Source of the DNA: an uncultured virus (IMG/VR IMGVR_UViG_3300031555_010821)
Taxonomy: Duplodnaviria; Heunggongvirae; Uroviricota; Caudoviricetes
Length of the DNA: 23,773 nucleotides
IMG/VR virus record: IMGVR_UViG_3300031555_010821
Direction: 5' to 3' (one strand)
A model generated the notes under the pieces. It made no database searches, had not been told where the DNA came from, and saw only the letters and a list, made by a program, of their open reading frames with translations. Below are positions 1 to 23,773 of the stretch, piece after piece; positions within the stretch are counted from its first letter, which is position 1, and every line of letters begins with the position of its first letter. The position numbers and the translations under genes are program-made.

Positions 1-146
1 TAAACGGGAACACCTTCCACAGTGCCGGTTTTATAGTCATCAACGAAAGCCAGCACATGAAAGCCGTTCTCCGTTGCCAGTCTTTTGCAGATGCGGCCCT
101 GCTGGCCTGCACCGCAAATTACGATATTAACAGCATCATTCTTCAT
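1..146 (-). CDS. NeuD/PglD-family sugar acetyltransferase-like protein, N-terminal fragment (runs off the window; absent from ORF track)
   Basis: Manual translation from ATG 146: MKNDAVNIVICGAGQQGRICKRLATENGFHVLAFVDDYKTGTVEGVPV. GAGxxG, FVDD and GVPV match the PglD N-terminal Rossmann-like domain. Overlaps the end of the ParB-like gene. Confidence 0.7.
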   Translation of the reverse strand, partial: MKNDAVNIVICGAGQQGRICKRLATENGFHVLAFVDDYKTGTVEGVPV

Positions 147-831
147 CCGTCCAGACCTCCTGCTCTTCAGTTTCCTCGGAGAGTTCTTCGGGGACGGTCT
201 GTTCCTCCGGCTGCTCCGAAGGCTTCTGATATCCAGGCAGCTCTTCGAACGGAATGATCGCCGCCTGCATCTGATCGTACCAGATTGCGCGGGCGTTAAT
301 CTTTCTGTTCGCAATTCTGACCTTGGCGCCCTCAATACCGAGAGCTCGTACCAGGTTGTTATAGTCCAACTGATTGCGGCAGACGATCATGACGTAATCG
401 TACTTCTCGTAATGGATGAGCTCCATTTCCTTGATGTCACGCTCATTGACCGGCTTCTGCTTGTCGACCTCTTCGCGGAGCGTCATGTCCATCATGTTAT
501 CAACGCCCCAATCGTTCAGAATGTCCAAATCCCAATCACCTGCGTGGGTGTTGAGCTTGACGTTGACCACTTTCTGTTCCTGAACCGTGAAGCCGATTAG
601 CATTTTGCAGTCCACCATCATGTCGGGATCCTGCTCCTGGAAGATGGCCACACGCTGATTTCCGCCGATTACCTGGTTCTCTTCATTGATAACGATGATG
701 TCGAAATCGCCGTACATGTCGAGCGATGCCTTGAGGTCTTTCTTTCGCTGTGTCTTAATCTTTCGGGGATTCCCGAAGTCAAGTCGCAAGTCACCAACGC
801 GGCGCTTGACGACCTCAATGGTCTTTTCCAT
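136..831 (-). CDS. ParB-like N-terminal domain protein
   Basis: NPRKI...LKASLDMYG...IVINEENQVIGGNQR...NVKLN.HAGDWD..L motif set; start moved to ATG 831 after GGAGG RBS. Confidence 0.8.
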   Translation of the reverse strand: MEKTIEVVKRRVGDLRLDFGNPRKIKTQRKKDLKASLDMYGDFDIIVINEENQVIGGNQRVAIFQEQDPDMMVDCKMLIGFTVQEQKVVNVKLNTHAGDWDLDILNDWGVDNMMDMTLREEVDKQKPVNERDIKEMELIHYEKYDYVMIVCRNQLDYNNLVRALGIEGAKVRIANRKINARAIWYDQMQAAIIPFEELPGYQKPSEQPEEQTVPEELSEETEEQEVWTDEE

Positions 832-928
832 TGCTTGCACCTCCATGTTCATAAAAAAAGCACTGCTCATCAGCAGTGCATCGTGGATTTCCCGTCCCCT
901 AACGGTTCATCCGATTTTTCTGTTTTAC

Positions 929-6097: not shown

Positions 6098-6338
6098 CAA
6101 AACCTCCGATCAGATCGAGAACTTCCTTAATTGCCGCTGCGCGGCCCTTGTTGTAGCTGTATGCCCTCAGAATCTCCTGCTGGATGCTGCTCCCTTCTGT
6201 AGCTCGGTCTGCTCTGTTCTTCTCCCACTCTGCGTGTTTGACATAATGGTGATACATGCGGACCAGATCGGCCTTGAAAGTCTGAAAGTCCTTTTCGAGA
6301 TTCTCCTTGATTCTGTCGAAGTAGCTGAGCTTACTCAT
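6069..6338 (-). CDS. hypothetical protein (paralog of 5879-6097)
   Basis: start MSKLSY overlaps the end of the upstream gene; shared motif. Confidence 0.7.
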   Translation of the reverse strand: MSKLSYFDRIKENLEKDFQTFKADLVRMYHHYVKHAEWEKNRADRATEGSSIQQEILRAYSYNKGRAAAIKEVLDLIGGFDDEQAEGTA

Positions 6339-6519
6339 CGTCTTTTCCCTTTCGCATTTCCTTTTCCATCCACTTTTTAAGACCTTCAACGGGAACTAAA
6401 ACTCGGCGCCCGATGTGAATAACCGGAAAATCCGCTCTGTGTACCAGCTCGTAAGCCTTCGGGCGACTGATCTGCAAAACCTGTGCGAGTTCGTGTACCG
6501 TAAGTGTCATCTTCTCCAA
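6331..6519 (-). CDS. excisionase-family (HTH_17-like) DNA-binding protein
   Basis: LTVHELAQVLQISRPKAYELVH..DFPVIHIGRRVLVP; GGAGG RBS. Confidence 0.85.
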   Translation of the reverse strand: MEKMTLTVHELAQVLQISRPKAYELVHRADFPVIHIGRRVLVPVEGLKKWMEKEMRKGKDDE

Positions 6520-6988
6520 TTTCTTTTACCTCCTGCATATTGAGACGAAGCGCTTCGTTCATGCTGTCAATCACTGCCGCGAGCGTTTTGATACTTCTGT
6601 ATTTATTAACAAAGGCTTCCATGTCTTTTCTGGCGCTTTGCTCCAGAACTTCCATCATCGACGGGCTTTTGATCGCCACCTGAATCGGCGTATAGTCGCG
6701 CTTTCCCTCGATCACCTTGACGAAAGCGCGGATAGGAGCTTCTTCTGTTTCCTCGGTCTTAATGACCAAACAACGAATGATGTGCGCAGCCTGGTTTTCA
6801 CGATAGGCTTCAGCCGCAACAGAGTCATTCCATTCAAATTCATTATGAAGCGGAGCATCTTCTGCTCTGTTGGCATCTACCAACCGCTTCGGTGTCAATC
6901 CGCCGCTACGAGCAAGCTGCTCACACATTTCACCTGCAACCTGTGCAGGGGTTTTAATCATAGATTTCGCTTTATACTGGTAAACCAT
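6386..6988 (-). CDS. conserved-looking phage protein downstream of the RAMP/repeat module
   Basis: AAGGAGG RBS before ATG 6988 (MVYQYK); motif LTP..LVD..R....PLH..FEW.D..AAE.YR...A..IIR. Confidence 0.75.
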   Translation of the reverse strand: MVYQYKAKSMIKTPAQVAGEMCEQLARSGGLTPKRLVDANRAEDAPLHNEFEWNDSVAAEAYRENQAAHIIRCLVIKTEETEEAPIRAFVKVIEGKRDYTPIQVAIKSPSMMEVLEQSARKDMEAFVNKYRSIKTLAAVIDSMNEALRLNMQEVKEIGEDDTYGTRTRTGFADQSPEGLRAGTQSGFSGYSHRAPSFSSR

Positions 6989-7013
6989 AAAGTTCCTCCT
7001 TTTTTCATCCTGG

Positions 7014-7042
7014 CAGTCGGTGAGCATTATGCCCACCGACTG
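7014..7042 (-). other. strong RNA hairpin closing the repeat tract
   Basis: CAGTCGGTGGGCA-TAA-TGCTCACCGACTG on the - strand; 13 bp with one G-U pair; no U-tract. Confidence 0.8.
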
Positions 7043-7045
7043 TTA

Positions 7046-7131
7046 GCCAGCCGTGTCGCGCCAAACCCGGCCTCACCAAGCCGTGCCTCGCCCGGCCCCA
7101 CCCTGCCTCACCATGCCCCGCCTCGCCTGCC
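7046..7131 (-). repeat. period-5 GGY-NN tract: 15 pentamers (14 GGY, 1 GAC) flanked by GGCA and GGCT-GGC
   Basis: GGCA GGCGA GGCGG GGCAT GGTGA GGCAG GGTGG GGCCG GGCGA GGCAC GGCTT GGTGA GGCCG GGTTT GGCGC GACAC GGCT GGC. Confidence 0.95.
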
Positions 7132-7146
7132 GAGGATTGACGGTCG

Positions 7147-7803
7147 TCAGTTTACTTCCACATGGAACATACCGAACTGGCCGTCACGCTCAGGTCTGTA
7201 TTCGCCAATGCCGCACACAAAGCCGCCGGCGTTGATGATGTTGATAATGTTCTCCAGGCTGAACGGGCCGTGCTCGTTGTAGCTCACAACAATATCAGCG
7301 TACCAGTTGCGGATCTCACCGCGATAACGAATATCAGCAGTACCCATGCCGACTCGTACCATGTCTTCACGCATAATGGGTGCATCACCCTTGATTTCAA
7401 CCATTCCGTCAACGTCATCGTCGATGAAGAAAGCACCTCTCAGAGCCATCTGATTCTTGACCCAGCCCATTCTGTATGCTGCGCTGATTGCTGCCTGCTT
7501 CAGTCCAGTTACCGGGAAACCGAACCGAGCGCCGTTGCTGATTGCTTCATCATAAGCCTCTTTGGTCATCTCAGTAGGCTTTTCGGTCAGCCAGTACAGG
7601 GAATCGATAAAATCCGCCATCGGGTTCTTGTACTCCTTCTTTTTGCCCTTGGCCAGACCCATCTGAGCATCCAGCATCATTTTCTTGGCCTTCTCGCTCC
7701 ATGCGTGAACGATCAGAGGAGAATCGCCCGAGATGCGGATTTTGACCTTCTTGATCTTGATAGGGGTGATTTCGATTACTTCACTGTTCTTCTTAACTGC
7801 CAT
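7147..7803 (-). CDS. stand-alone Cas7/RAMP-like RNA-binding protein (Vipr-like)
   Basis: IRISGDSPLIVH (RAMP beta1), FPVTGLKQAAISAA (P...lK..l..a helix), beta-hairpin thumb-like EDMVRV...IRYR, C-terminal Gly-rich loop GGFVCGIGEYRPERDGQFGMFHV; AAAGGAG RBS. Confidence 0.8.
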   Translation of the reverse strand: MAVKKNSEVIEITPIKIKKVKIRISGDSPLIVHAWSEKAKKMMLDAQMGLAKGKKKEYKNPMADFIDSLYWLTEKPTEMTKEAYDEAISNGARFGFPVTGLKQAAISAAYRMGWVKNQMALRGAFFIDDDVDGMVEIKGDAPIMREDMVRVGMGTADIRYRGEIRNWYADIVVSYNEHGPFSLENIINIINAGGFVCGIGEYRPERDGQFGMFHVEVN

Positions 7804-7824
7804 TTTCAGTTTCTCCTTTTCAAA

Positions 7825-21914: not shown

Positions 21915-21957
21915 GCCCTTTCAAGAACAGTCGGCCCAACATATCAAATAATAAGAT

Positions 21958-22028
21958 ACGGTTAGGTTAGGTTACGGTAAGGTTACGGTTATGTCTGGAA
22001 ATTCCGCGGATTTTCCATGGATTTTCCA
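21958..22028. repeat. GGTTA-type short repeats plus three 11-bp YGGAWWTTCCR direct repeats
   Basis: ACGGTTAGGTTAGGTTACGGTAAGGTTACGGTTA; TGGAAATTCCG, CGGATTTTCCA, TGGATTTTCCA at 21996, 22007 and 22018. Confidence 0.85.
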
Positions 22029-22051: not shown

Positions 22052-23773
22052 GTGGCAAAACTTTCTGATGCTCTCAAGACTTCAAAAGCCGCTATTTATA
22101 TTCGAGTATCTACACAGTGGCAGATAGACAAAGATTCTCTTCATGTGCAGCGCCGTGAGCTGATTGCTTATGTCGAAATGGTTCTCGGTATCACAGACTA
22201 TGTTGTGTTCGAAGATCCTGGCTATTCCGCCAAAAACACAGAGCGGCCCGACTACCAGAAAATGATGAGCCGAATCCGCGCCGGTGAGTTCTCTCACATT
22301 GTAGTCTGGAAGATTGACCGTATCAGCCGCAACGTCCTCGACTTCGCCAATATGTATGTAGAGCTGAAAAGCCTGGGCGTAACATTCGTTTCCAAAAACG
22401 AGCAATTCGACACGAGCACTGCGATCGGTGAAGCCATGCTGAAAATCATTTTGGTCTTTGCTGAGCTTGAGCGCAACATGACTGCTGAGCGCGTCACCGC
22501 CGTTATGCTTTCCCGAGCAAACAATGGTCAGTGGAATGGCGGACATGTTCCATATGGATACAAGTACGACAGTGCAGCAAAGACCTTCAGCGTTAACGAG
22601 GACGAGGCGCGTATCGTGCGAACAATCTTCAAAATGTATGAACGCGAGCAGTCTCTGGTTTCCGTCACGCGGGACCTAAACGACAAAGGCATCCTGACAA
22701 GAAATGGGAAACAATGGTCTCCGACGACCGTTCACATCGTCCTGAAGAATACGTTCTATATCGGCCAGTACCGGTACAATACGCACAAACAGCTTCCTGG
22801 CAAAAAATATACTGTACCACGCGACGAATCCGAATGGATTGTAGTAGACAATCATCATGAGCCGATTGTCGACGAAGAGCTGTTTAATCGGATTCAGTTC
22901 CTTCTGGAGCGTAACCGGCGCAGACGAACCAGTGAAAACAAGACCTATGCAAAAAAGAATGTCCACATCTTTGCCGGATTGCTTCGCTGCGGTGTCTGTG
23001 GTTCTAACATGAGTGCCACCACAGATCGCGTCAGAGCAAACGGTTTACGGCCATCAATGTACGGTTGCTCAAAGCGCCGAGCCAGTTTTGCGGAATGCCA
23101 AAACAAATATGTAAACGATATTGTTATAGGCCCATTCATTTTCAATTATCTCGCAAATATCATACGAGCAAAAAGCTCCATTTCATCTCGTACCCCTTTG
23201 GAAACGCTCGAAAGCAAGCTCCTCAGAGGGTATATGTTTGAGGGCGTTAAGCTTGCCCACGAAACATTGCAATCTGTTCAGGAAATGCTTTTAAGCGGAG
23301 TGACAGGAATGGAGTACAAGCCGGCAGGCGCTCTTTCAGATCTTGAAGAAAAGCGCGATGAACGGTCAATTCTTCTTGAGCAAAAGCGAAAGCATACGAC
23401 TGCGCTCAAGCGCCTGAATTCAATCTACCTGTATAACGAGGACGACGTTCCGCCCGACGATTTTCTGGAGTCTCGCAAGAACATCACCGATCAGCTCAAA
23501 GACATTGAGGAACGCCTTAGCCAATTGGAGGATACAGAGGATTCTATTGCCTCCAACGAACAATTCATGGAGAAGGCCAGCTACTTCCTCATGGTGGAAA
23601 GCCTTCTAAGCGACCGATATATCGATTACGAAAAGTATATCCGCAAAATCGACCCGACCGTTCCGAAAGCATTTCTTAATACAATCATTTCTACAATCAC
23701 AATCAACAAAGGCAGGGTCATGTCAATTGAATTCAAAAACGGCATGGTCCACAAATTCTTATACGATCAATAA
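22052..23773 (+). CDS. large serine recombinase (integrase)
   Basis: YIRVST catalytic motif, KIDRISRN, GHVPYGY recombinase domain, CGVCG...C...C Zn ribbon, coiled coil. Confidence 0.96.
   Translation: MAKLSDALKTSKAAIYIRVSTQWQIDKDSLHVQRRELIAYVEMVLGITDYVVFEDPGYSAKNTERPDYQKMMSRIRAGEFSHIVVWKIDRISRNVLDFANMYVELKSLGVTFVSKNEQFDTSTAIGEAMLKIILVFAELERNMTAERVTAVMLSRANNGQWNGGHVPYGYKYDSAAKTFSVNEDEARIVRTIFKMYEREQSLVSVTRDLNDKGILTRNGKQWSPTTVHIVLKNTFYIGQYRYNTHKQLPGKKYTVPRDESEWIVVDNHHEPIVDEELFNRIQFLLERNRRRRTSENKTYAKKNVHIFAGLLRCGVCGSNMSATTDRVRANGLRPSMYGCSKRRASFAECQNKYVNDIVIGPFIFNYLANIIRAKSSISSRTPLETLESKLLRGYMFEGVKLAHETLQSVQEMLLSGVTGMEYKPAGALSDLEEKRDERSILLEQKRKHTTALKRLNSIYLYNEDDVPPDDFLESRKNITDQLKDIEERLSQLEDTEDSIASNEQFMEKASYFLMVESLLSDRYIDYEKYIRKIDPTVPKAFLNTIISTITINKGRVMSIEFKNGMVHKFLYDQ

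Follow-up and report, generated by a model that had tools for sequence, protein, structure and literature searches.

VIPR is a CRISPR-related phage weapon that was first described in 2026 preprints (10.64898/2026.04.26.720920). According to that work, Vipr is a small stand-alone RAMP protein with an RRM core, a G-loop and a thumb, usually encoded with one accessory gene (vap), and its guide RNAs, the vrRNAs, are made of 9–16 GGY/NN pentamers. A vrRNA is expected to be an RNA of about 100 nt or less that co-purifies with Vipr. The NN dinucleotides are reported to recognize double-stranded DNA; in each unit one target base, in most cases the wobble base of a codon, is skipped, and the system silences competing phages and satellites (10.64898/2026.04.26.720920). 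The same preprint distinguishes seven VIPR types, which include staggered arrays, ribozyme-spaced arrays and single-vrRNA systems. In the staggered arrays the vrRNAs overlap by one base, an arrangement given in the legend of its Fig. S18 (10.64898/2026.04.26.720920). A further preprint reports the recovery of 99 VIPR-like array clusters (10.64898/2026.10.21.760802), and decoy and solo vrRNAs are described in the Lopez et al. preprint.

Escherichia phage SUSP1 has a type II VIPR that consists of Vipr (agp039), Vap1 (agp038) and four vrRNAs (10.64898/2026.04.26.720920, 10.64898/2026.04.26.720927, 10.64898/2026.10.15.759431). Its pentamer tracts are reported to be transcribed and bound by Vipr (10.64898/2026.04.26.720920, 10.64898/2026.04.26.720927), and this is the system against which we compare the locus described here.

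The locus comes from a stretch of 23,773 nt, which we call the window, from an uncultured virus of the Caudoviricetes (IMG/VR record IMGVR_UViG_3300031555_010821). We believe that a pentamer tract in this window encodes a single VIPR guide RNA, and that it is carried by a prophage or temperate phage whose hosts are gut Clostridia of the Oscillospirales type. This is the best explanation we have, and for the reading as a whole, mechanism included, we would put the probability at roughly 0.88. It draws on the anatomy of the repeat, on a neighboring Vipr homologue with conserved GGY-contact residues, on a conserved cassette of three parts and on hypervariable NN positions in the relatives.

The tract lies within a 158-base spacer between two minus-strand ORFs (7803..7147 and 6988..6386). 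Read on the minus strand from 7131 to 7040, it contains in order GGCA, 15 pentamers, GGCT and GGCTAACAG. GGCA, the 5' boundary (7131..7128), belongs to a GGCAG boundary unit, the final G of which doubles as the first G of guide unit 1. The guide body (7127..7053, minus strand) consists of the pentamers GGCGA GGCGG GGCAT GGTGA GGCAG GGTGG GGCCG GGCGA GGCAC GGCTT GGTGA GGCCG GGTTT GGCGC GACAC, which gives the NN string GA GG AT GA AG GG CG GA AC TT GA CG TT GC AC. GGY is present in 14 of the 15 units, the exception being a degenerate last unit that has GAC in its place, and adjacent units are never identical. At the 3' boundary (7052..7040, minus strand), GGCT (7052..7049) is followed by GGCTAACAG (7048..7040), and TAACAG is also the separator motif of L001, the closest relative. 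Alternatively, the "GGCT + GGCTA" of this boundary can be read as a 16th unit, GGCTG, whose last G is common to the next unit; the guides of relatives end likewise in an overlapping boundary unit (GGCAG). Our re-reading of the tract agreed with the first-pass annotation on the GGY/NN pattern, the list of NN dinucleotides, the lack of identical neighbors and the GGCA and GGCT brackets.

VIPR requires at least four tandem GGY+NN units (YNNGG) and typically has 9–16; the window has 15, of which 14 are perfect. The longest perfect GGY run at period 5 was 14 units on the minus strand and 3 units on the plus strand, and in 300 first-order Markov surrogates of the window the longest run averaged 2.6 units and never exceeded 4. 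When we scanned both strands of the window for at least five GGY per eight consecutive units, we found this tract only. Tandem Repeats Finder sees the tract in part (7084..7117, period 10, score 40), because the NN positions vary. The tract sequence was constant, with 0 other letters, in contigs from 4/4 fecal-metagenome runs, one of which is possibly the source sample. Among the sequencing runs listed as containing the stretch, there was no RNA run.

A repeat of this kind might also be a slippage microsatellite or a short coding repeat. Two plus-strand ORFs (7053..7235 and 6638..7282) cross the tract, and gene callers do annotate such tracts as proteins, as happened with the CDS gp40 of Gordonia phage UmaThurman, an array that we return to below. 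However, a period of five breaks the reading frame, the units differ at NN only, unlike the products of slippage, and in 67 relatives the tract holds a fixed place between two conserved genes. We give this explanation next to no chance.

The gene directly upstream of the tract (7147..7803, minus strand; P0001) encodes a 218-aa stand-alone RAMP (Cas7-like) protein with a match to phrog_4652, which we presume to be the vrRNA-binding filament subunit. A phmmer search of the PDB with the single sequence found 36pp_D, "SUSP1 Vipr protein", at E 3e-4, and a profile built with 29 relatives matched the same chain at E 3.4e-10. With hhalign, the family aligned to SUSP1 agp039 at 97.6% (E 3.5e-12, 172 columns). 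SUSP1 residues H17, R138, C173, D177, W178 and R179, which are the G1/G2/Y3 contacts by cryo-EM (10.64898/2026.04.26.720927), align with H33, R161, C197, E201, Y202 and R203 in the window. H33, R161, E201 and R203 are invariant among the 29 relatives; the changes from D to E and from W to Y at contact positions are conservative, and the consensus shows W in most relatives. Judged by sequence comparison, this gene is a Vipr homologue in which the GGY-contacting residues are conserved.

The fold of the protein is predicted to be Cas7-like or RAMP-like. Its AF2 model (pLDDT 83.5) matched chains of type III Csm/Cmr, type VII and Cas7-11 (III-E) in Foldseek (E 4.5e-5 to 2e-3, TM 0.30–0.49), and every row listed was a chain of a type III, type VII or III-E effector complex. 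A predicted RRM/RAMP fold with a glycine-rich loop is what the protein has in common with the Cas7-family backbone subunits (Csm3, Cmr4, type VII Cas7 and Cas7-11). Unlike in the class 1 CRISPR effectors, the guide here is a pentamer repeat and not a repeat-flanked spacer. Pfam, NCBIfam and PADLOC gave no family for the protein. We found no CRISPR array (repeats of about 25–40 bp) in the window and no Cas family among the ORFs scanned, and noticed no RAMP fold besides Vipr in the annotated part of the window.

On the other side of the tract is the accessory gene (6386..6988, minus strand; P0002 family, phrog_15946), which AGGAGG at 7000..6995 precedes. Its conserved part is about 150 aa long (6988..about 6536). 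The ORF extends about 50 codons beyond the ends of its homologues (6386..6536, minus strand), in low-complexity sequence, and this extension overlaps the start of the next gene, an excisionase-like HTH_17 gene at 6331..6519 (minus strand). The extension may be due to a lost stop codon or to an assembly frameshift.

The accessory protein gave a confident AF2 model (pLDDT 94.5). With this model Foldseek found no match at E ≤0.001, its weak rows being mostly winged-helix regulators, and the best VIA-align hit (Z 6.8) covered the C-terminal helical hairpin only. A PDB profile search with the family returned nothing below E 0.088, Pfam, NCBIfam and PADLOC returned nothing, and the Atlas search returned viral hypothetical clusters only. 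The family profile also has no similarity to SUSP1 Vap1 (hhalign 0.1%), and therefore the locus is not type II by that criterion.

In several respects the locus is nevertheless like the type II VIPR of SUSP1. In both, a two-gene phage cassette encodes a small stand-alone RAMP whose GGY-contact residues are the same, and both have GGY+NN guides of 9–16 units on the vipr strand. In contrast to these likenesses, the window's Vipr is distant, with a significant sequence match confined to the C-terminal third, and the accessory protein is unrelated in sequence to Vap1. The guide lies between vipr and the accessory gene, whereas SUSP1 has its guides ahead of vipr and behind vap1. As in the single-vrRNA VIPR systems, there is only one guide in the window, compared with four vrRNAs in SUSP1. 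Type II (the SUSP1 / P. fulva clade) is defined by Vap1 and by an invariable 3' pseudoknot tail on each guide, and neither is found here: the long conserved tail between the SUSP1 guides is absent, and the window has GGCAG/TAACAG boundary units and a 17-bp hairpin.

This hairpin (7050..7010, minus strand) has a stem of 5 + 12 base pairs with a bulge of 4 nt and a loop of 3 nt, and it overlaps the 3' boundary of the tract. The fold of 7146..6989 has an MFE of -67.7 kcal/mol (z -3.0), and 0/200 shuffles were as stable. On its 3' side come AGGAGG (7000..6995) and then the ATG of the accessory gene at 6988. No U run follows the hairpin, and it is absent from the list of our terminator scan. In many relatives this position, behind the last boundary unit, is taken by a short GGC...GCC hairpin; the one in the window is much longer than these. 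Our guess is that the hairpin may cap or stabilize the 3' end of the guide like the type II pseudoknot, or may separate the guide from the accessory-gene mRNA. Promoter-like and terminator-like sites were in no excess over shuffles in the window scan, and none was directly upstream of the tract. Rfam gave no match in the window and only four tRNAs in 20 related loci, with no hammerhead ribozymes in either.

The window represents a temperate-phage early region, with a serine integrase at 22052..23773. The early genes are a repressor, a cro-like gene, two exonucleases, RecT, a replication initiator, a DnaC-like loader, RusA, SSB, DUF5131 and a DUF1492 regulator, followed by the VIPR cassette, and there is a ParB-like gene at 136..870. 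The nearest record is classed as a provirus and is identical over the tract. A mainly viral or proviral location is expected for VIPR, and the cassette sits in a prophage early region, with 39 homologous loci on viral contigs. Just upstream of the integrase gene we observed a tandem repeat (21957..21991, plus strand) with period 16 and 2.1 copies, which can also be read with a period of 5 or 11 (GGTTA/CGGTAA). It is not GGY/NN-like and could be a binding site for a recombinase or a regulator.

Homologues of the window's Vipr were found on 39 viral contigs at 43–78% identity and in 79 genome loci at 37–72%. The closest genome loci are in MAGs of Acutalibacteraceae, Oscillospiraceae and Ruminococcaceae. 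A VIPR locus is expected to be a minimal two-gene locus with a conserved accessory (vap) gene, and in 106 of the 118 related loci an accessory homologue (tblastn) lies downstream of vipr in the same orientation. In 67 of those 106 loci, the spacer between vipr and the accessory gene holds at least six chained G[GT]Y units. Among the loci that have no array in the spacer we checked 31, and 25 of these have a GGY run of at least five units, always on the vipr strand and mostly starting within about 300 bases after the accessory gene. In the distant relatives (L031–L039 and L076–L118, from Proteobacteria and others), vipr and the accessory gene abut or overlap and the array usually comes after the accessory gene, which amounts to a second gene order within one Vipr clade.

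When we cut the arrays of relatives at GGCA|G or AACA|G, 273 of the 398 pieces had a length of 5k+4, and therefore the guides in these arrays abut, without tails, with one shared G. This is like the staggered arrays of VIPR as the Fig. S18 legend describes them. Guides typically have 8–14 units in the relatives, and 6 of 230 have 15 units, so the window's guide is at the upper end; with 14/15 perfect GGY it is also more regular than the relatives' guides. L001, which has 78% Vipr identity to the window, carries three guides with unrelated NN and with GG-YY-TAACA|G as the separator. Against the single guide of the window, relatives have arrays of 3 to >15 guides.

For conservation we used 230 unique guides (2458 units) from the arrays of 66 relatives. 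G occupies position 1 in 91% of the units and position 2 in 74%, with T at position 2 in a further 21%, and position 3 is C or T in 89%. The information content is 1.45, 0.94 and 0.56 bit at positions 1–3 and 0.12 and 0.09 bit at positions 4–5, and all 16 dinucleotides occur at NN. The first-pass annotation had proposed comparing related phages for conserved GGY and diverged NN, and this is what the 2458 units show, with NN near-random.

These numbers bear on another explanation, in which the pentamers act as DNA and not as an RNA guide, as an iteron-like array (an origin or operator) bound by the accessory protein. The winged-helix regulators that dominate the weak, non-significant Foldseek rows of the accessory protein would fit with this, as would the position of the tract among replication genes. 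However, binding sites would conserve their sequence, yet NN is near-random in the relatives. The arrays are also always on the vipr strand, and the homologous tracts of SUSP1 are transcribed and Vipr-bound according to the preprints. We regard a DNA array as very improbable, and continue with the reading of the tract as a guide-RNA gene.

There are also cultured phages with this cassette. We found a Vipr homologue of about 36% identity in 33 cultured phage records, which by organism name are 27 Mycobacterium phages, 5 Gordonia phages and 1 cyanophage, and in these records the homologues are annotated as hypothetical. In Gordonia phage UmaThurman (L120 3115..3440; NC_031249.1 about 33349..33674), a GGY+NN vrRNA array has been annotated as a CDS, gp40, under the name "hypothetical protein". 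The array is flanked by the Vipr homologue gp39 and by gp41, which occupies the place of the accessory gene in relatives, and the cassette comes directly after integrase, repressor and excise.

In the same fecal metagenomes as the window, other contigs are 80–90% identical to parts of vipr and then diverge a few bases before the vipr stop (window positions 7156 and 7191). One of them, read as the reverse complement, continues with a different pentamer start that is led by GGCAG. Several VIPR variants seem to coexist in these fecal samples, because the contigs diverge near the vipr stop.

Target scoring followed the published procedure, in which an ungapped placement of the guide is scored by the share of its NN positions that match. 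We applied it to 219 guides from relatives and to ten sets of shuffled guides; the sequence scanned was 0.67 Mb of related loci in which the arrays had been masked. With a skip of one base, 3 matches reached ≥90% compared with a shuffle mean of 0.3 (range 0–2), while skips of 0, 2 and 3 bases gave 0, 1 and 0 matches at that level. At ≥85%, a one-base skip gave 16 matches compared with a shuffle mean of 7.7 (range 4–13). Inside ORFs, 12 of the 15 real matches were in wobble phase, compared with 50 of the 86 shuffled matches.

The best of these matches fall on genes of rivals. A guide of L065 matches the vipr gene of L001 at 19/20 in codon phase, over the conserved DMVKVGMGTA, and a guide of L054 matches the start of vipr in L050 at 20/22, again in codon phase. 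A guide of L087 matches a PolA-like polymerase in L090 at 18/20 in codon phase. On that DNA polymerase gene (L090 5197..5313), guides from L019, L023 and L087 converge in frame (19/22, 17/20 and 18/20), and those of L019 and L023 fall on polymerase motif B in codon phase. The exact 10-unit pattern of the L065 anti-vipr guide had 0 matches in viral_contigs. By a hand count, this guide matches the window's own vipr at 17/20. A 9-unit guide of L020 matches the ribosome binding site and start codon of the window's vipr (7818..7792, minus strand) at 16/18 NN, in frame; shuffled guides also reach that level, and we treat the match only as a lead that rival phages aim at the window's vipr.

Taken from a small database, these matches are coherent but statistically weak support for the published one-base-skip rule in this clade. 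The rule had been given in the first-pass annotation in the form that the preprint reports, and the idea put forward there that the skip passes over wobble positions has likewise been published and fits the best matches of the relatives' guides.

We also searched for the target of the window's own guide. In the window and 39 related loci, none of the gap models of 0–3 bases, which the first-pass annotation had suggested comparing with shuffled NN, rose above 200 shuffled controls, and the sole "hit" of the 3-base gap model was the tract itself. With a one-base skip the best scores were 18/30 in the window and 19/30 in the 39 loci, which were equaled in 188/200 and 197/200 shuffles. In viral_contigs, exact seeds of units 4–12, 1–9, 7–15 and 1–6+10–15 gave 0 matches each, and seeds of units 1–3+10–15 and 1–6+13–15 gave 1 match each, at 22/30 and 19/30, which is chance. 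An exact seed of units 3–12 gave 0 matches in genome_contigs. In metagenome_contigs, units 4–12 gave 17 matches, all at 19–23/30, and these are at chance level because 18 forced matches plus chance give such scores. The full pattern with at most 3 mismatches gave 0 matches in 5 genomes, in 0/401 genomes from the order and in 0/151 from the family to which an Acutalibacteraceae MAG belongs, this being the likely host family; controls also gave 0. The seeds recover every site that is mismatched in a single unit and miss many sites with mismatches in two units, and the collections hold one genome per species and are sparse for gut mobile elements.

The 44-nt one-base-skip target therefore remains a prediction, since the searches gave nothing beyond chance. 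It had been put forward as a 44-bp site in the first-pass annotation, and our seed-limited searches of the viral, metagenome and genome collections returned no match to it beyond chance. The broader claim made there, that NN carries the target information, is supported to the extent that the locus is a VIPR locus and that NN is the guide in VIPR. The reading of the string as an "HTH-like" peptide is not supported.

It is also conceivable that this is a genuine vrRNA gene without a live target, either a relic guide whose target element is gone or a guide that serves, for example, as a decoy or in self-regulation. None of the collections that we searched yielded a target, the window has a single guide where relatives have arrays of several, and the last unit is degenerate; decoy and solo vrRNAs are also on record in the Lopez et al. 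preprint. A guide with no live target sits less well with Vipr and accessory genes that are intact, with all of the invariant residues present, and with a tract that is more regular than those of relatives and unchanged in 4/4 runs. Gut mobile elements are also thinly represented in the collections, and to be found a site had to contain an exact seed or have at most 3 mismatches. We consider this version unlikely, though not as far-fetched as the DNA array, and we keep to the reading of the tract as a VIPR guide with a target.

For RNA expression, processing, binding, filament formation, the one-base-skip rule and silencing, we infer from the preprints on SUSP1 and P. fulva how the locus would work. 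The guide would probably be co-transcribed with vipr in a leftward early operon and would then be cut to length at its boundary units of the GGCAG type. Each pentamer would be covered by one Vipr protomer, with two neighboring protomers holding G1, G2 and Y3 and exposing N4 and N5. Through its 15 NN dinucleotides the resulting filament would pair with double-stranded DNA, leaving out each third base of the target, and would occupy a 44-bp site in which the NN string is on one strand with one free base between dinucleotides. It would thereby silence transcription of a competing mobile element.

Since the tract is best read as a VIPR guide-RNA gene, it is real and readable, but of an already known kind, and the locus leaves the knowledge of how VIPR works unchanged. 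What it offers is a clean minimal example, in which about 1.4 kb holds a single Vipr gene, a single guide of 15 units and a single accessory gene, in a host group, the gut Clostridia, in which VIPR systems are unstudied. By profile comparison and structure prediction, the accessory protein appears to be distinct from Vap1 and to be without a known fold.

We also put forward, tentatively, a wider picture that we think is possible but would not bet on. The locus may belong to an experimentally uncharacterized VIPR lineage that extends over gut Clostridia prophages, Gordonia and Mycobacterium phages and Proteobacteria, has an accessory protein without a recognizable fold, and cuts its guides at GGCAG-type overlapping units. 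These guides may be aimed largely at the vipr and DNA-polymerase genes of rivals. The window would then be a minimal form with one long guide, which the 17-bp hairpin caps in the role that the pseudoknot tail has in type II, and the target would be a competitor that has not yet been sequenced. The same cassette has gone unrecognized in cultured Gordonia and Mycobacterium phages, where annotators have entered the guide array as a protein, and in those phages it could be tested at the bench.
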